Shown here: positions 33,601 to 42,010 of the stretch, piece after piece
Layout: every line of letters begins with the position of its first letter
How positions within the stretch are numbered: the first letter of the stretch is position 1
Assembly (NCBI GenBank): GCA_965218295.1
Contig: CBDCKN010000017.1
Coordinates: 1 to 64,000 of the forward strand
DNA: 64,000 nt
Direction: 5' to 3'
Source of the DNA: Longimicrobiales bacterium
GTDB lineage: Bacteria; Gemmatimonadota; Gemmatimonadetes; Longimicrobiales; Gaopeijiaceae
Notes under the pieces: model-generated
What the model was told of the DNA's origin: nothing
Seen by the model: only the letters and a program-made list of their open reading frames with translations
The model's database searches: none
Made by a program: the position numbers and the translations under genes

Positions 33601-34141
33601 GGCGACGGAGGGCGGCCTTTCGCCTGTCCTTGTACTTACCGATGCCCGAAGCCTCCTCGAAAAGCTGCCGCCTCTCCTCCGCCCGATCGGAGAGAATGGC
33701 GTCGATCATCCGGTTCTCGATCACCGAATAGGCGTTGGCGCCGAGCCCGGTGTCACGGAAGAGGTCGACCACGTCGCGCAGACGACAGGTCGAGCGGTTG
33801 AGCGAGTAATCGCTCCCCCCGTCTCGGTACACGGTACGGCCGATCTCGACCTCCTCGTACGCAACCGGGAGAACCCCGTCCTCGTTGCTCACCACCATGG
33901 TAACCGCGCCCCGGTTCACGGGGTGGCGATTCAGAGAGCCCTGGAAGATGGCCTCCTCCATCTTCCCTCCCCGGATGGCGGAGGGGCGTTGCTCTCCCAG
34001 TACCCAGCGAACGGCGTCGCTGATATTCGATTTTCCGCAGCCGTTGGGCCCGACGATGGCCGTGATGCCCTCGTGGAAGTCGATGACGGTGGCGTCAGCA
34101 AAAGACTTGAACCCATGTACGCGAAGTGATCGGAGTTTCAT
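30623..34141 (-). CDS. smc: Chromosome segregation protein SMC
   Basis: GFKSF, GPNGCGKSN, long coiled coils, LSGGE, LDEVDAPLD. Confidence 0.97.
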   Translation of the reverse strand: MKLRSLRVHGFKSFADATVIDFHEGITAIVGPNGCGKSNISDAVRWVLGEQRPSAIRGGKMEEAIFQGSLNRHPVNRGAVTMVVSNEDGVLPVAYEEVEIGRTVYRDGGSDYSLNRSTCRLRDVVDLFRDTGLGANAYSVIENRMIDAILSDRAEERRQLFEEASGIGKYKDRRKAALRRLEHAENDLTRLEDVIAEVETKVCSLARQKGKAERYGALRERRLSVEVAVVRNNLADLEVRLKELDAALEGDRKTGQGMVAELRAAEATYERLRLKEVTAERSRAKAAAALAQVKAQLVEWERDLAVAEERGGYAMRRLSQIGGDREAWSKRLDDVRGESAELQGSHEGQERELERVRAEVSRQADASAVVKARLQEARDRVEEKEHRERDLVRRGAQLEGDAEASQGQAAELERRIKHITAELSDASNVLNDLESQGDLFTTRLDGLEAAVQDVRKRLDAAQEALGGQRKAFDEARRRELDAVRTVQGMEVEVAALEALGLRREGIDPAAKAALALEDAGVVGSLPDFIEAPGEVASVVETYLGPLAQALVVRDGASADRIVRWFADDWAEGGGLVLLPLDRVPDPAGGSLLKAVKAKGEGAPWIEALLGEVDLVETQESVGPAPERAQLSIAGMVTDPRGFIKVGRPSGTSGVLERRARVESIRQALDEAVGEAAGARQEVENAEAAEEKAEEVLAVARISFLEAEDELRQTSAEMVAQVDRRARVDTHRDELARQLEGGKAARARALERAQSAREDRENLLAQEGDIRAEREKVREILASVQDEWEEAHGEESRLSVTLARMEAESERMAERLQDLAREAAVGDDRLGELDAEEKVLTDELNTAQRLQEEGRVATERLFGERDEAESVLEERTKLLSDVAEALADADKAARLARSAEREAVDLRHQLELERQEVSGRIGLIQERLEGEWGRPLERLLDEAEPVEGEPEALREELEELVVKLERIGLVNMLAVEEHAEESARLAFLNEQREDLVAAHNDLKSAIQQINETAIDLFESTFEKIRGNFQSTFHRLFEGGEADIWLADPEDPLESPIEVHASPRGKKTQRIDLLSGGERALTALSLLFGIYLVKPSPFCILDEVDAPLDENNIGRFIRLLQEFKEQTQFVIITHNPRSIEAADWIYGVTMEEPGVSTVVGVQLEEALHVGGSAA

Positions 34142-36552
34142 TGGGGCAGTCGGCCCCTCCGTTCAGTCAGACGTACGTCACCCAGGTCGTTCGCACGAAG
34201 GAGTCGCCCCATCGCAGCGGCCTGGAACTCGTCCACAAAAGCTCCGCCATAGACGCGCAGCCCCGTGGTTCCATCAGGATAGCTCACCTCCAGTACGTGA
34301 GCCGGTATGGAGAGAGCGGCCAGCGACTGGACCCTACCGGCCGCGGCCGCCGCCTCGGCGTACTCGTCGAAGAAGAACGAGTATCTCGCCTCCTGAACCG
34401 TCCACATAGCCGGATTGAGGCGGTCCAGGACCTGAGCCAGAGGCTCCTTCAGGGCGTCTGCCTCCACTGCGCTGAAGGCGGGGCCTGCGAGCAGCGCGTA
34501 TTGGTCGGCCCCGGCCACGTCGATAACGGTCACGAAGAACAGAAGCTCGGGAAGCCGCCCCCGGAGCGCGTCCACCGTACTCGAGGCCGTTTCCATGCTG
34601 CGCCAGGCATCGACCATGAGCACATGGCTTATCACTGGCGTCTCGGGCGTCGGGCCGGGTAGCTCTACCGGGGGTGGCACGCCAGAGCGCACGCGCTCAG
34701 GCGGTGTGACCCCGGGGATGTTGATGAAGCCGAAATACGCAGCCGTGATACCTCCGCCCCCCACGATCAAGGCTGTGGCCATACCCACCAGCAGCTGCCG
34801 GACCCTGGCTCCCCGCCTTCGCCGCCGATCCAACTCCTCCAACCCCGACATCTTGCGAGGCGGGCCTTCCTCCAGGTCGACGGCAGTCTCGCCTGCCGTG
34901 TCTTCGGGGAGCGCATCAGTGCCGGCTCCCATTGCCTCTACGGCCGCATCCACGGCGATGGACTCGTCGGCGCCTACCGAGGGATCCCCGGGAGGCGCGT
35001 CACTGGTGGCCAGGGATGCCACAGGCTCGGGCGAACCCAGATCGGGATCGTCGAATGCCAAGTCTCCCGCGGCCCCGCTGAGATCTTCCGCTGGCACCAG
35101 CTCCTCGTCGTCGAGCAGGTCGTCCTCCGCGAGGGGGCTGGCTTCCACCTCGAGGTCGCCGTCTCCGAAGCCGAGGTCGTCTGAGTCCTCGGCCTCCCCT
35201 ACCTGCTCCGCACCCGGACCGGCCTCGAAGCCGGCCGCGGCACCCTCTTCGACAACGCCACTCTCCAAGTCGTCCGGAGCGTCTTCCAGCTCGAATCCGG
35301 CCCCTGTCTCGAAGCCCTCCATGTCCAGATGGGCATCCTCGGCGGCTGCCGCCTCGTCCATCTCGATCGTGGATCCCCTCACACCCTCGACGGCTGGCAT
35401 GCCCGGCTCTTCGACGGCCGCCTCATCGGCAATTGCCGGTCCCTCCACCTCCGTGACCTCTACCTCCGCGGCCTCCGCCTCCGGGGGGGCCACCTCTACC
35501 GGCTCGACCTCCAAGGGCTCCATCTCATCAGGGGCTCCGACGAGAGGAGCTCGAGCCTCTGGCTCGGCTTCGTCAGACGCGTCGTACTGCGATCCCGCCA
35601 CACCTTCGAGACTGAACCCGTCCGAATCATCAACTTCGTCCGCCGCATTACCGGTTGAGTCGGGGAGTCCCTCCATGGTGAAGAGTCCCGCGTCACCAGC
35701 CGGCTCTTCCGTGACGCCGGCCGGAACGACTTCGGCCCCGAGGGGAGTCTCGACCTCCGGCTCCGGCTCGGACTCTATCGTCGGCTCCACCTCGAGCTCG
35801 GGCTCCCGTTCGTCATCAATTTCAGAGATCATCTCCACCTCCGGCTCTGCTTCTGACTCTGCCTCGAGCGGCGCTACGAACTCAGGCTCAGGCTCCGACG
35901 TCATGTCGACTTCCGGCTCCATGACCGGCGGGGCGATCTCGTCGGCGCCGACCTCCCCAGCGGCCTCCGGACCGAGCACGGCAAGGATGCGATCCGACGC
36001 GGAGCCCAGGATCGACGACACGTCCTCCGCCGCCTCCGCGACAACGATGACTCCCGCCGCCTGGTCGAGGAGGGCCCGAGCTCCGGTCGTGGCCGCTGAC
36101 AAATGCAGCAGGAGCACCGCCCCCGCCTCCTGGAAGCCGCTGATCACGGTATCCCACTTGGGATGCGCTAAGACTTCCGCGGCGTCGTCCACGGGGGTCC
36201 CGGCCGGGGCAAAGAGGATCCCGCCCCCGACGGATCGGGCCACACGCTTCACCGACGCTCCGTAGAGCATGACGTCGGACACGCCCTCATCATTCGTGCC
36301 GTCTACCGACTCGTGGAGAACCGGGTCCTCGAGGGACGCGTCCGCGAGCAGGACGCTTCGGCCCTTGGCGGCCCAGCCCCGGGCGACGAGCAGGCTCACC
36401 TCCGCCCCCCAGCGTCGATCGATCTCAGGTGCCACCAGGAGAACGACGCAGCCCGTGGTGGAATCGAAGGAATCCAGTGCGGCGTCGATGTGCTCGGGCA
36501 GACCCTCGTTGGCCGGATCTATGGGCTGCCAGGCTGGATTATATGGGCTCAT
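34138..36552 (-). CDS. Degenerate MinD/BY-kinase-like domain + long acidic linker + TM + SPOR-like domains
   Basis: VLLADASLEDPVLH...NDEGVSDVM resembles the MinD/CpsD DADL..P.LH segment but no Walker A; E/D/P-rich middle; RRRRR then TM; YALLAGPAF and LRVYGGAF SPOR-like ends. Confidence 0.7.
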   Translation of the reverse strand: MSPYNPAWQPIDPANEGLPEHIDAALDSFDSTTGCVVLLVAPEIDRRWGAEVSLLVARGWAAKGRSVLLADASLEDPVLHESVDGTNDEGVSDVMLYGASVKRVARSVGGGILFAPAGTPVDDAAEVLAHPKWDTVISGFQEAGAVLLLHLSAATTGARALLDQAAGVIVVAEAAEDVSSILGSASDRILAVLGPEAAGEVGADEIAPPVMEPEVDMTSEPEPEFVAPLEAESEAEPEVEMISEIDDEREPELEVEPTIESEPEPEVETPLGAEVVPAGVTEEPAGDAGLFTMEGLPDSTGNAADEVDDSDGFSLEGVAGSQYDASDEAEPEARAPLVGAPDEMEPLEVEPVEVAPPEAEAAEVEVTEVEGPAIADEAAVEEPGMPAVEGVRGSTIEMDEAAAAEDAHLDMEGFETGAGFELEDAPDDLESGVVEEGAAAGFEAGPGAEQVGEAEDSDDLGFGDGDLEVEASPLAEDDLLDDEELVPAEDLSGAAGDLAFDDPDLGSPEPVASLATSDAPPGDPSVGADESIAVDAAVEAMGAGTDALPEDTAGETAVDLEEGPPRKMSGLEELDRRRRRGARVRQLLVGMATALIVGGGGITAAYFGFINIPGVTPPERVRSGVPPPVELPGPTPETPVISHVLMVDAWRSMETASSTVDALRGRLPELLFFVTVIDVAGADQYALLAGPAFSAVEADALKEPLAQVLDRLNPAMWTVQEARYSFFFDEYAEAAAAAGRVQSLAALSIPAHVLEVSYPDGTTGLRVYGGAFVDEFQAAAMGRLLRANDLGDVRLTERRGRLPQ

Positions 36553-36699
36553 CCGTGCACCCTTCGCATGGTGAAGATTCCGCGCCGCGACGGGCACGAT
36601 GCACCAGAGGAACAGAGACCTCGCGATCCCCGTCTTGATGGCGGCAAAGGTAACCCACCCTCCAGAGGAGGTCCACTGGAATCGTAGGAGTATCGGCCC

Positions 36700-38025
36700 T
36701 CAACGCACATATCGACCTATCCGTCGCTCGAGCTCCGGTGCGCCCCCCGGCGAAGCATTCAACGCTGCCCCCATGACCTCGGCTTCCGCAGGGCTCTGAT
36801 AGGCTCCGGCATACACCCGGAACAGGGGCCTCTGCATGCCGCCGACCTCGAGGACATATGCGCCGATACCCGCGTTGCGGACCTCCGCCACCCGGACCTG
36901 CGCCGCCTCCGACGACTCGAACTCCCCGAAACCATATGCCAAAGGGGTCGGACGCACGATCCAACGAGCCGCGTTCTCGTCGGAAAGCGTCTCCGCCAGG
37001 GACGCCCGCAGGCGCTCGGCCCCCAGAGAGTCCTCGACGGGGCCGGCGAGGACCCGATGATAGACGCGGCCCGACACTCGCACCGGAGCGACGATGAAGA
37101 GCAGGTCTGGACGCCGTCGGGCCATCCTCTGGGCCTGCCGTCCGGCGGTCTCGCCCGCCTGGTAGGCAGCCAGTGCCAGCGAATACGCCTGGTGCGGCCC
37201 GGCCAGCGACGTCGATGGCGCCGAGGAAACGGGTGGCTGGGGAGCAGTAGCCTCCACTAACGGTGGTACGGGTTCCGAGGCTGTGAACATGACCTGCCAC
37301 AGGGCCAGGGCCCCCAGCCCCACGAGGGTACCGGCCAGGGCCGGCCGCCACAGGATGACCCTCGGCTCAGGACTGGGCTCTTCACCCATGGTCTCGGTCT
37401 CCTGCTGCACGTCTGCGACGGCGCTCGAATCAGCAGTGGAGCCGAAGTCATCCGCAGCGGGCTGCTGGGGTGCCTCCGGCGGCTCTGCCGCCTGCGCCCC
37501 CTTCGCACCCCGGTCCTCCACGAGGCCTGCCACATCGTCGAGAGCGAAGGACTGGGCCACCCACTCCGCCTCGGTGGGGTCGCCGGCCAAGAGCAGCGTC
37601 GCAGCGCTGCGGGCTACCAGAGCATCCACGCCCGGTAGTTCTGCGGGCACATAGAACAGGATCGTGGCCTGAGCGTCCCCCACCTCCTCCACGAAGGCGG
37701 CCCATTCATCACTCAGAGTGACTTCTGTGGGATCTTCGATCGGCGTCCCGACAGAAACGAACTGGAAGCCCGGCGTCCCCACCTGTTGTGCCACCGAAGG
37801 GATCGGTGCCTCTCGGAGGACGACACGGTGGCCCTGACCGGACCAAGCCCGGGCGAGGGCCACGGCAGCAGTGGGACTCCAGGATGACCGGATGACGTCC
37901 GGGGCGACGATGAGGGTGACGACGCCCCTCCCGGCGCCGGAGAGGAGTGCGCCGGGTGCCGCGATCACCGGTAGACGACCGGAGTCGGGGTCGAACGGGT
38001 ATAGTTGCGAGTGGCCCCGATCCAA
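36700..38025 (-). CDS. Shorter paralog: degenerate NTPase-like domain + TM + SPOR-like domains
   Basis: Collinear similarity to 34138-36552; YHRVLAGP and FRVYAGAY SPOR-like motifs. Confidence 0.7.
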   Translation of the reverse strand: MDRGHSQLYPFDPDSGRLPVIAAPGALLSGAGRGVVTLIVAPDVIRSSWSPTAAVALARAWSGQGHRVVLREAPIPSVAQQVGTPGFQFVSVGTPIEDPTEVTLSDEWAAFVEEVGDAQATILFYVPAELPGVDALVARSAATLLLAGDPTEAEWVAQSFALDDVAGLVEDRGAKGAQAAEPPEAPQQPAADDFGSTADSSAVADVQQETETMGEEPSPEPRVILWRPALAGTLVGLGALALWQVMFTASEPVPPLVEATAPQPPVSSAPSTSLAGPHQAYSLALAAYQAGETAGRQAQRMARRRPDLLFIVAPVRVSGRVYHRVLAGPVEDSLGAERLRASLAETLSDENAARWIVRPTPLAYGFGEFESSEAAQVRVAEVRNAGIGAYVLEVGGMQRPLFRVYAGAYQSPAEAEVMGAALNASPGGAPELERRIGRYVR

Positions 38026-38555: not shown

Positions 38556-39011
38556 TTACTCCTCGCCTCGCTCCATACGAACCTCCACGTCGACCTCGAC
38601 CTGACTGTGGAGGCGAACCGGCACCTTGAAGGTCCCCAGGAGCTTCAACGGTTCTTCGAGTATGACGGTGCGTCGGTCCACCTCGAAATCCAGCTCTCCA
38701 TGGTTCAACTGATCGGCGACGTCTGCGTTCGTTACGGAGCCGAACAGCTTGCCGTCATCCCCCGCCCTGACGTGAAATACGAGCGACGTTCCTTCGAGCT
38801 GGGATGCCCGACGACGCGCCTCCAGGTAGTCGTGCCTGGCGCTCTCCTCGGCCCGCGCATGCTCCTCTTCCAACCTCTTCAGGTTGGCGTCACTCGCCAC
38901 GTACGCGAGTCCTTGGGGAATCAGATAGTTCCGCGCGTAACCCGGCCTTACGTCGATGATGTCGCCCTCACCTCCGAGCGTCTCCACCGCCTTCCTCAGA
39001 ATGAGCTTCAT
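38556..39011 (-). CDS. rplI: 50S ribosomal protein L9
   Basis: MKLILR...VRPGYARNYLIPQG, GKLFGSVT. Confidence 0.97.
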   Translation of the reverse strand: MKLILRKAVETLGGEGDIIDVRPGYARNYLIPQGLAYVASDANLKRLEEEHARAEESARHDYLEARRRASQLEGTSLVFHVRAGDDGKLFGSVTNADVADQLNHGELDFEVDRRTVILEEPLKLLGTFKVPVRLHSQVEVDVEVRMERGEE

Positions 39012-39024
39012 GGACCGTCTCCGT

Positions 39025-39966
39025 CTACGAGTCAGTGCCGCTGGCCGACGCCTCGGCCTTGGCGCGTAGGTCGAGCCAAGTATCGCCGACGCCGATGACC
39101 AGCGCCCCCATGATCAATACAGGCGCAAGGAACAACATGCCGAGCGCGACCGCCAAGAAACCGAACAGCGAGATACCACCGTTGAAGAACAGAACCACGG
39201 CGGCCCCTCGGATGGCATAGAGCCCGCCCATGAACACGACGGCGTTGGTCCCCGCCAACGTCCATGCCTCACCCAATCCGAGCACGATCAAGGTCAGCCC
39301 CACCAGTAACAGCCACACGAAGTGGTCGTTGAACCGGAAATCCTTGAGCGGCCCCAATCCCTGGTCACTCCCCGCAGCGAGTCTAACGTAGCCCCACCAG
39401 GCCACTCCGAGTCCCGCTAGTGACGACAGACCGAGAAGCGCCGGGAAGAGTCTTCCCTGCTGCGCCGCAGTCGCGAACACTGTGTTGACCATGGCAGTCG
39501 GGATGTCCCGTTCGGGGTTCAGGGCGGTCAGCAGGCTAATGGCCAGGCTGACACTCTTCATGATTCCGTCGGTAACGAGCCAGTCCACCATGGCCCAGGA
39601 GCCCGGTTGGAGCGCCAGAAGTGCCGCTACGAGGGCGAAGGTGCCCAGGACGGCCCCCAAGGCTCGCGGGAAGAACCGGCTGCCGGGCCAGCGCATCGTC
39701 AGGACCACGAACCATCCCGCCAAGACGACCGCCCACCCGCGCTCCAGATACCAGATACCGCCGCGTGCTGTAACCCCCAATGTGACCATCACGGCCAGAA
39801 TGGCGGCCATCACCGTCGGAAACCTGCGGGCACCCAAGACCAGCGCGAGGACCAGGAACGGTACCGCCACCAACACCCCTGCACTGACAACTGCCAGCGC
39901 GAGAGTGACGAGCAGGAGTGCGGCGGCGCGCAGCCATGTTCGCTCCGGCCGCGCCGTGGAATCCAA
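39025..39966 (-). CDS. DUF2232 (YybS-like) membrane protein
   Basis: Multi-TM; C-terminal GVGDTWLDLR; position between rpsR and rplI. Confidence 0.75.
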   Translation of the reverse strand: MDSTARPERTWLRAAALLLVTLALAVVSAGVLVAVPFLVLALVLGARRFPTVMAAILAVMVTLGVTARGGIWYLERGWAVVLAGWFVVLTMRWPGSRFFPRALGAVLGTFALVAALLALQPGSWAMVDWLVTDGIMKSVSLAISLLTALNPERDIPTAMVNTVFATAAQQGRLFPALLGLSSLAGLGVAWWGYVRLAAGSDQGLGPLKDFRFNDHFVWLLLVGLTLIVLGLGEAWTLAGTNAVVFMGGLYAIRGAAVVLFFNGGISLFGFLAVALGMLFLAPVLIMGALVIGVGDTWLDLRAKAEASASGTDS

Positions 39967-39987: not shown

Positions 39988-40644
39988 CTAGACCTCGTGG
40001 TCCCGGACGTATGGGATCAACGCCAGATACCGGGCCCGCTTGATGGCACGTCCGAGCTGTCGCTGGAAGCGGGCCGTGACCTTCGTCGTACGCTTCGGCA
40101 AGATCTTGCCCTGCTCGGTCATGAACTGAGACAGCGTCGAAACGTCCTTGTAGTTGAGGAGCTCGATGACCGGCCCCTCCATACGACGCCGGCGTCCCCG
40201 GCCACCGCTGAACTCAGGGGGGCTGTGCCGCACCGGTGCGTCGTCATCGGTCTCGGACGCTTCGTCCTCGGGATCCGCATGGTCGTCATCGTCGTCATCA
40301 TCTTCTTTTTGAGTGCGGGGGGGGCGCTCTCCGAGGGTCGACCTCCCGGACGTAGGCTCCCCCTCGTTCACGACGACCAGGTACCGCATGAGGTCGGTGT
40401 CGAGTCTGAGCACCCGCTCGAACTCCGGAAGTCCGTCGGAGCCGGCGCGAACCTGCGCCACCACGTAATTGCCTGTCTTCTGCTTCTTCACGGGGTAGGC
40501 CATCTGACGCACCCCCCAGTGATCGACAGCCATGACTTCGCCGTCGCTTCCGATCACGAGGGGATGGAACTTCTCCAGCTTCTTATTGACCGCATCTTCA
40601 TCGAGGGTAGCGTCGAAGATGTAGACGATCTCGTATAGCCGCAT
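39988..40644 (-). CDS. rpsF-rpsR: Fused 30S ribosomal proteins S6-S18 (218 aa)
   Basis: S6 motifs MRLYEIVYIF...WGVRQMAYPVKK...MRYLVV, acidic linker, S18 motifs NYKDVSTLSQFMTEQGKILPKRTT...QRQLGRAIKRARYLALIPY; no stop between. Confidence 0.92.
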   Translation of the reverse strand: MRLYEIVYIFDATLDEDAVNKKLEKFHPLVIGSDGEVMAVDHWGVRQMAYPVKKQKTGNYVVAQVRAGSDGLPEFERVLRLDTDLMRYLVVVNEGEPTSGRSTLGERPPRTQKEDDDDDDDHADPEDEASETDDDAPVRHSPPEFSGGRGRRRRMEGPVIELLNYKDVSTLSQFMTEQGKILPKRTTKVTARFQRQLGRAIKRARYLALIPYVRDHEV

Positions 40645-40650
40645 GGTTGT

Positions 40651-40701
40651 TCTCCCACGGTCCGTATGTACACGGGCCCCGCCACGCGGGCGGAGCGGGA
40701 T
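40651..40701 (-). promoter_or_regulatory. Putative S6:S18 autoregulatory leader RNA
   Basis: ATCCC can pair with the GGGAG SD; unpaired TCCG precedes hairpin CCCGC-GTG-GCGGG; second hairpin CCGTG-TACA-TACGG; TATATT -10-like hexamer at 40711-40716. Confidence 0.55.
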
Positions 40702-40813
40702 GAGCCAGTTAATATATGCCATGCCCGTGCGTTTTGTACCCCCGCGCAGCCACCGGCATGAGGGTGGTAAGCTACCGGGGATAGAGTTCCAAGACCGCCC
40801 GCCGGGACCATTC

Positions 40814-42010
40814 CTAGGAGAGCTCCTCTTGTAGCGCGAGGATCAGGTCCGGGTAACGGGCGTAGGCCCAACGGGCTTCCTCTACGTCGAGCCGCTCGCG
40901 ATTGGTGTGAGCGAAGCGCTCCTCACCCGGAGCGAACCCCACAGTGGGGATGCCGAAAACGCCTCGACTCCATCCACCGTCGGTGGCGAACGTCCACGGA
41001 CGCACCCTGGCTGGCCCCTCGCCGTCGCGGCGCCCCACCGCGGAAGCCGCAGCTAGGACCAGGGGATCGAGTGGCTCCATGAGGAAGCCGGGAGTGAACA
41101 GGCTCCGCTCACACGTTACTCCCGTGTAGGTCGCCTGCCGTTCCCTGGCCATGGATGTGGTTACGCTGAACCCGTCCGGAAGCTTCCCGAGCCGACGATC
41201 CACGGCCTCCCGCACGCGCGAGGTCATGGCCTCGTCGTCAGTGCCAGGCAGAACCCTCCAGTCCAGGACGATGGTGACGCGGTCGGGAATCACGTTCCGG
41301 CTCTCCGGCAGGACGTCCACACCAGTCGCCACCAGGCTAGACGCACCTAGAACCGGATCCTCCGGCTGGTCACGTGCCAGCTCGTGGACGGCGGCGAGTA
41401 CTTCAGGGACGGGGTCCAGGGCGTTGTGGGCCCGGTCCGGGGCGGAGGCGTGGCCGGCGAGACCGTGCACCACCACCTCGACCTCTCCCCGCCCCCGGTG
41501 GCCGATGCAGACGTCTCCTTGCGTCGATTCCCCGATCACCACGGCGCCCGGCTCCACACTCCCGGACTCGAGGAGGTGCTTCATGCCCAGACCACCCCGC
41601 TCCTCGAAGACCGTGTGCGCCACGACCACGTCTCCCGCGGCACGCCCGGTCAAGGCGGCGGCAGCGTACGTCTGCAGGGCCAGTGGACCCTTGATATCCA
41701 TGGACCCGCGACCATGAAGGAAACCCGCCGAGATGTCTCCTCCGAATGGCGGGTGCTCCCACTCGGCATGATCGCCCTCGGCCACCACATCGGTGTGGCA
41801 GTTGAGGAGCACGGGCGGGGCGGCTCCCCGGCCCATCACGCGGCCGATGACGTTCCCCACCTCGTCGATACGAACGTCTTGCAGGCCCAGGGCCTCCATC
41901 TCGCTGCGAATCCGATCGGCCACTTCACCTTCTTGCCCCGAGGGCGAGGGGATACGGATCAGGTCCTGGGCGAACGCCAGGGCGTTCTCGAAGCTGGGAT
42001 CTTTTGTCAT
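40814..42010 (-). CDS. M20/M25/M40-family metallo-hydrolase (ArgE/DapE/YgeY-like)
   Basis: NCHTDVV, GRGSMDIKG, FEE, GHAS, FATDG, AHTNRE. Confidence 0.88.
   Translation of the reverse strand: MTKDPSFENALAFAQDLIRIPSPSGQEGEVADRIRSEMEALGLQDVRIDEVGNVIGRVMGRGAAPPVLLNCHTDVVAEGDHAEWEHPPFGGDISAGFLHGRGSMDIKGPLALQTYAAAALTGRAAGDVVVAHTVFEERGGLGMKHLLESGSVEPGAVVIGESTQGDVCIGHRGRGEVEVVVHGLAGHASAPDRAHNALDPVPEVLAAVHELARDQPEDPVLGASSLVATGVDVLPESRNVIPDRVTIVLDWRVLPGTDDEAMTSRVREAVDRRLGKLPDGFSVTTSMARERQATYTGVTCERSLFTPGFLMEPLDPLVLAAASAVGRRDGEGPARVRPWTFATDGGWSRGVFGIPTVGFAPGEERFAHTNRERLDVEEARWAYARYPDLILALQEELS

Follow-up and report, generated by a model that had tools for sequence, protein, structure and literature searches.

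A single open reading frame in the 64,000-nucleotide stretch of Longimicrobiales DNA that we analyzed (the window) encodes complete ribosomal proteins bS6 and bS18 joined through an acidic linker, and the same fusion was found in nearly every sampled genome of one family of this order. Judging from sequence comparison, the product of this fused rpsF-rpsR gene (39988..40644, minus strand; 218 amino acids plus a TAG stop codon) is probably an uncleaved, single-chain version of the bS6:bS18 heterodimer. S6 and S18 form a textbook obligate heterodimer on the platform of the 30S subunit and are normally separate chains from two genes, whereas here one frame holds the sole copy of each domain.

The initial annotation had described one 218-residue frame with a complete S6, an acidic linker, an arginine-rich stretch and a cysteine-free S18, a description borne out by Pfam and TIGR matches and by reading of the sequence, with the frame lying on the minus strand (the plus-strand frame at 39988..40644 is unrelated to S6–S18). 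Both Pfam domains scored above their cut-offs, Ribosomal_S6 over residues 4–91 (83.5 bits, cut-off 27) and Ribosomal_S18 over residues 163–210 (75.3 bits, cut-off 21), as did TIGR00166 for bS6 (residues 1–94, score 78.3, cut-off 42.9) and TIGR00165 for bS18 (residues 160–215, score 76.1, cut-off 38.75). On the minus strand, the gene comprises a bS6 core (residues 1–94, 40363..40644), recognized by these matches and by comparison of a structural model with solved bS6 chains; a bS6 C-terminal arm that begins GEPTSGRS (residues 95–110, 40315..40362) and is predicted to be ordered; an acidic linker (residues 111–141, 40222..40314) predicted to be disordered; a conserved motif, PPEFSGGRGRRRRxEGP (residues 142–158, 40171..40221), which includes Met155 (40180–40182) and takes the place of the native bS18 N terminus and its CxxC; and a cysteine-free bS18 core (residues 159–218, 39991..40170), delimited by profile match and alignment. 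An in-frame ATG lies further upstream at 40722, yet homologs align from the ATG at 40644. Both domains are complete and, as in the canonical heterodimer, the bS6 fold and the RNA-reading lysine and arginine of bS18 are retained: K202 and R205 align with E. coli K60 and R63, the residues that read CCG, and did not vary among the 69 proteins aligned. The genome, which is 90.7% complete, gave one match each for bS6 and bS18, both inside the fused frame, and none of the 60 PDB chains listed spanned both halves.

The initial annotation had also stated that neither a stop codon nor an obvious homopolymer lies at the join. There is indeed no stop, but the second part of the statement was wrong, as a run of eight G residues sits in the linker (40317–40324, plus strand). 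A stop codon lost, or an indel introduced at this run, during sequencing or assembly would create a spurious fusion, and many gammaproteobacterial S6+S18 database entries resemble read-throughs of this sort. However, no indel was listed inside the ORF in any of the eight public runs that we compared (all as assembled contigs), and contigs from three of the eight crossed the join (40180–40370) in frame and without gaps: X3 (40153–40583), X7 (two contigs, 40141/40153–40429) and the RNA library X15 (40099–40410), a form of support that consists of contigs instead of raw reads and in which the RNA-library contig alone is no proof of transcription. None of the substitutions listed for X3 or X15 creates a stop. 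The G8 run is not conserved, and homopolymers of at least seven bases occurred in just 12 of 115 fused linkers. We also considered a programmed frameshift at the G8 run and rejected it, given the lack of conservation of the run and the presence of a slippery heptamer pattern in only 3 of the 115 linkers.

The artefact reading, whose probability we place close to nil, was refuted by a survey of the family (f1), which is probably UBA6960/Gaopeijiaceae. The fusion was present, with divergent linkers, in 123 of 126 sampled f1 genomes (91 scored by a single full-length stop-free match and 32 by reading the locus), and not one of the 126 had a stop after the S6 tail, the arrangement that the initial annotation had told us to look for in close relatives. 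The three remaining genomes were undecidable, two because the locus breaks at an N gap or contig end and one because it had no match. Outside f1, all 157 other Gemmatimonadota genomes checked were split, either by direct reading or by an S18 frame shorter than 140 amino acids, a length that is only an upper bound (genome G377 is split despite equal open-frame lengths). Both Pfam domains were found in 120 of 120 proteins among the matches listed, out of 1691 protein matches. A set of 80 named GTDB loci (79 titled Gemmatimonadota or a subgroup of it and one titled Gammaproteobacteria) comprised 77 that were fused, two with S18 only, and one, L076, that was shifted by a single base in a C run, where it has one C fewer than L028, and that reads as split. 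Because these 80 loci had been found with query patterns, genomes were sampled by taxonomy as well. Locus L066, titled Gammaproteobacteria, has a typical f1 fusion and leader and probably represents a mislabelled or mis-binned contig. The records of f1 genomes come from marine, sponge and saline-lake sources, and the fusion is a sharp marker of the family.

To place the origin of the fusion, we used trees built from 160 columns of the two cores in a subsample of 68 rows (24 fused, 16 from family f3, 14 from family f2 and 14 outgroup). The f1 sequences formed one clade (support 100/100), which joined the split sister family f3 at 96/90, and trees built separately for S6 and S18 agreed. From these trees and the family survey, we conclude that the fusion is vertically inherited, has a single origin and is fixed in one Longimicrobiales family. 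In 52 of 59 split loci, the rpsF stop, which follows an acidic bS6 tail, and the rpsR start are separated by −4 to +4 nucleotides; because the two genes abut in this way, one small change would fuse them. At split locus L322 (G377:C218), rpsF and rpsR apparently share a frame with a single stop between them, one change away from a fusion. The ancestral rpsF stop would have been removed or bypassed in a locus where the two genes abutted and ssb was already missing; in the fused genome, ssb lies on another contig, unlike in the canonical rpsF operon.

Loss of the bS18 zinc site maps to the same branch as the fusion. All 116 fused S18 halves are free of cysteine and therefore have neither the CxxC nor the CxxH of zinc-binding (C+) bS18, whereas all 30 split Longimicrobiales loci and 25 of 29 other Gemmatimonadota keep both motifs. 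Zinc-free forms occur among the C+/C− bS18 paralogs described in the available text of PMC9976891, and the fused bS18 resembles these C− forms in its lack of CxxC and CxxH. It differs from them in being the sole copy, with no C+ gene alongside, in being joined to bS6, and in its placement beside the C+ genes of f3 in our trees. We likewise considered acquisition of a C− bS18 by horizontal transfer and set it aside, as the trees, which contained no bS18 from other phyla, favored descent with f3. Separately, four split Gemmatimonadota loci (L178, L182, L194 and L201) encode bS18 that lacks the zinc motif wholly or in part.

The linker varied from 23 to 165 amino acids in the 109 proteins measured and consisted of 43% aspartate plus glutamate, with no conserved sequence and with almost no aromatic or large aliphatic residues. 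Its likely ancestor is the acidic tail that bS6 has in split relatives, and this old tail would now form the loop between the two domains. The bS6 arm (GEPTSGRS...) resembles the start of the f3 bS6 tail (EGEPTAPMS...). In several f1 genera (loci L077, L080, L081, L116–L142 and L202–L205) the linker is greatly expanded and rich in Ala, Gly, Glu and Asp, giving proteins of up to 345 amino acids (L134); the similarly long acidic bS6 tails of split loci L326 and L327 indicate that tail expansion is independent of fusion. The motif that follows the linker is near-invariant: among 116 proteins, its two prolines were conserved in 115 and 112, its phenylalanine in 113 and its glycine in 115 (PPEFSGxRGRRRR), and its codons vary at third positions, which points to selection on the protein. 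GGRGRRRR may conceivably have originated from the acidic tail read in a shifted frame: upstream of Met, the S18 frame of split loci does encode GGRGR, but the present codons lack a GGA/CGA bias.

An AlphaFold2 model built from 69 sequences (pTM 0.72) was confident over both domains (pLDDT mostly 80–97 over residues 1–110 and 161–210, with values of 87 and 80 for the bS6 arm at residues 91–110), had pLDDT below 50 over most of residues 114–134, consistent with a disordered linker, and reached just 56–66 in the motif region. Its bS6 part matched chain 8cwo_F with a Z score of 16.2 and an rmsd of 1.6 over 96 aligned residues. The model suggests mutual docking of the two domains, with the proviso that such a prediction can lean on solved structures. 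In the single-chain reading that we favor, bS6 and bS18 would pair in cis and bind to the 30S platform in the normal manner, an incorporation that we infer from the sole-copy status and the conservation of the fusion; the Gly/Arg motif would stand in for the basic N terminus of bS18 on the RNA; and the likely gains would be a fixed 1:1 ratio of the two domains and, possibly, the steadying of a zinc-free bS18 by its tether.

The near-invariance of the motif next to a freely varying linker also fits a precursor polyprotein that a host endoprotease cuts, most plausibly at PPx(F/Y)|(S/T/Q/A)G, to release a bS18 that starts SGGRGRRRR. Native bS18 N termini are Gly/Arg-rich, as is the segment after the phenylalanine, and there is a precedent in the bL27 precursor of Firmicutes, which the protease Prp cuts after Phe. 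However, a search of 39 genomes, 23 with the fusion, found no Prp-family protease (Peptidase_Prp), whereas three control genomes were positive. In addition, the motif occurred in just four other of 2628 crude gene calls of genome G000, the M20-family hydrolase encoded directly upstream accompanies just 44 of the 136 fused loci (flanks of 1.5–3 kb), and a linker of at least 23 amino acids should need no cut. Of the two alternatives offered by the initial annotation, a pre-assembled covalent dimer or a precursor cut in the linker, our results thus favor the first. We regard a cleaved precursor, the leading rival of the single-chain reading, as unlikely, although a protease other than Prp may act. 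The same doubt, if anything slightly stronger, attaches to the more specific proposal of a ribosomal polyprotein, in which a non-Prp endoprotease would cut PPx(F/Y)|(S/T/Q/A)G as an assembly checkpoint of the 30S platform and release zinc-free bS18 with a new Gly/Arg N terminus. In the bL27/Prp system and in ubiquitin fusions, a ribosomal protein is likewise made within a longer chain, but here both halves are ribosomal partners and, with respect to bL27, the 39 genomes yielded no Prp.

A single-chain product would also be called into question if bS18 were made, additionally or mainly, from an internal start at Met155, with the long form representing bS6 with a dispensable extension. The ATG at 40182–40180 is shared by all 121 nearest proteins, and databases contain short S18-only calls from f1, some of them on long contigs; these calls, which include 64-amino-acid ones from Met155, have inconsistent starts. 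Family-wide, however, this start, which the initial annotation had named as a threat to its own interpretation, is not conserved: among 116 fused proteins, the column contains H in 50, V in 30, M in 29, I in six and F in one. Although ATG or GTG stands there in 39 of the 116, the other 77 have a non-start codon (CAC, GTC, ATC or another), and 59 of the 116 lack any start codon (ATG, GTG or TTG) between codons −30 and −4 upstream of YKD. The Gly/Arg codons that precede the column vary freely and contain no fixed Shine–Dalgarno (SD) sequence. With no stop codon in the frame, every bS6 carries bS18 in any case. Internal initiation as the general explanation is accordingly improbable, although an extra internal start is conceivable, from the sequence, in the sub-clade that bears Met155.

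A further reading starts from the Bacteroidia, in which, according to the available text of PMC9976891, bS6, bS18 and bS21 form a pocket that sequesters the anti-SD. The fusion would rebuild the 30S platform to do likewise and thereby alter mRNA selection, and the presence of a new motif with a conserved aromatic residue in the N-terminal region of bS18 is in keeping with such a role. Nevertheless, the anti-SD of genome G000 is canonical, and SD sequences precede 38% of its 2628 crude starts, compared with 15% in the background. The genome-wide lack of SD use typical of the Bacteroidia was not seen; instead, the signal was two to three times background, resembling that of split relatives, with SD fractions at ATG starts of 0.44, 0.30 and 0.29 in fused genomes and 0.35, 0.38 and 0.33 in split ones (400-kb samples except for G000, with crude start calls). 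Together with the presence of bS21 in 52 of 52 genomes, these results make anti-SD capture very unlikely.

The known S6:S18-binding rpsF leader (S6S18CBM) consists of a hairpin, an adjoining CCG and a stem that contains the SD, according to the available text of PMC3854524 and PMC3895269. The same elements occur just before the fused gene, in a likely S6:S18-binding leader RNA at 40652..40701 (minus strand), with a hairpin CUCCG...CGGGG (40695–40677), a CCG next to it (40675–40673), and a stem, UCCC/GGGA, over the SD (GGGAG, 40656–40652). The pattern, which was drawn from these same sequences, was present in 111 of 114 fused leaders compared with 19 of 2280 shuffles, and in 32 of 58 split leaders compared with 9 of 1160 shuffles. 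The hairpin also exhibited a paired change, from CUCCG/CGGRG (82 leaders) to CUCCA/UGGRG (13 leaders). The folding z-score of the window's leader taken alone (−0.87) was not significant, with the elements seen in its centroid fold; an Rfam search returned only a chance match and no relevant leader, and a promoter and terminator scan yielded nothing above shuffles. Compared with S6S18CBM, the ligand here would be one chain, and there is possibly an extra short hairpin, CCGU/ACGG. By these comparisons the fused gene looks to have retained the S6:S18 leader, and autorepression by the fused chain would continue through it.

The surrounding gene order, rpsF-rpsR-membrane gene-rplI, is that of the canonical operon. 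Downstream of the fusion are a gene for a hydrophobic, likely membrane protein of 313 amino acids (39025..39966, minus strand), rplI (bL9; 38556..39011, minus strand; identified by Pfam and TIGR), which is usually the last gene of the rpsF operon, and rsfS. The 313-residue protein had no Pfam match even at an E value of 1, but its gene was also found by tblastn near split rpsR in 26 of 30 split Longimicrobiales loci, and from its position we take it to be reminiscent of YybS/DUF2232. The M20-family hydrolase directly upstream (40814–42010, minus strand) was considered as a dedicated partner and rejected because of its patchy occurrence, which extends to 2 of 30 split loci (short flanks, 1.5–3 kb). 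Further along the minus strand, two genes encode proteins with a long acidic low-complexity middle: one of 819 amino acids with no Pfam match (34138–36597) and a SPOR-domain protein recognized by Pfam (36700–37920).

Fusions of S6 and S18 are probably not confined to f1. A profile search of 1.84 billion representatives returned 49 two-domain proteins among the best 150 matches, three in f1 and 46 outside it. Twenty-three two-domain proteins chosen by eye (22 of them non-f1) all passed both TIGR cut-offs, and the 22 fell into several groups away from f1 in a quick tree that came with long-branch warnings. Of 19 non-f1 fusions looked up, 14 were singletons and five had clusters of two to five members. 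The several groups away from f1 and the multi-member clusters make it likely, as judged from these protein entries, that S6–S18 fusions also arose separately in unrelated lineages, although some of the entries are probably assembly chimeras. These other natural fusions have the same domain order as the f1 fusion, but their linkers are unrelated and the f1 motif is absent by pattern. Only 1 of the 46 non-f1 fusions has a CxxC after residue 95, hinting that fusion accompanies zinc-free bS18, although many of the source lineages may be zinc-free anyway. Three cysteine-free singletons without the f1 motif (P0375, P0381 and P0382) grouped among split Gemmatimonadota in the quick tree, a placement that points to a possible second fusion within this phylum or close to it; among the 150 of 298 matches listed, they were not located in the 10 genomes searched, and the six of these genomes that were read directly were all split. 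A set of 27 proteins with both domains, from 120 long gammaproteobacterial-type S18 matches, was not counted as real, as most had an internal Met and scrambled linkers. The initial description of the fusion as unusual thus has to be tempered, because the fusion has reached fixation throughout f1, is annotated automatically and is apparently recurrent.

Targeted searches of the literature, with most subscription journals outside their reach, found no description of an S6–S18 fusion. Table S5 of PMC11651109, in its available part, marks UBA6960 genomes as lying within that paper's new taxon, and the main text, as far as available, mentions neither ribosomal proteins nor a fusion. The fusion is therefore probably undescribed in print, although databases annotate such proteins automatically: JGI labels them 'ribosomal protein S6/ribosomal protein S18', and an Atlas cluster, whose commonest taxon is Gemmatimonadota, is labelled 'Multifunctional fusion protein'. 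Many other database records of the fusion are named only S6 or only S18, which creates a trap for annotation.

As it stands, the fusion is a variant of a known heterodimer, and it would become a new kind of system only if cleavage or a new role of the motif were shown. From the available part of Table S5 of PMC11651109 and the title of locus L009 (UBA6960), the cultured Gaopeijia maritima probably belongs to f1, in which case experimental tests would be practical. The family offers a natural single-chain form of a textbook heterodimer, fixed across a large group of bacteria, and with it a natural test of whether tethering bS6 to bS18 alters 30S assembly, leader-mediated repression or the need for zinc.
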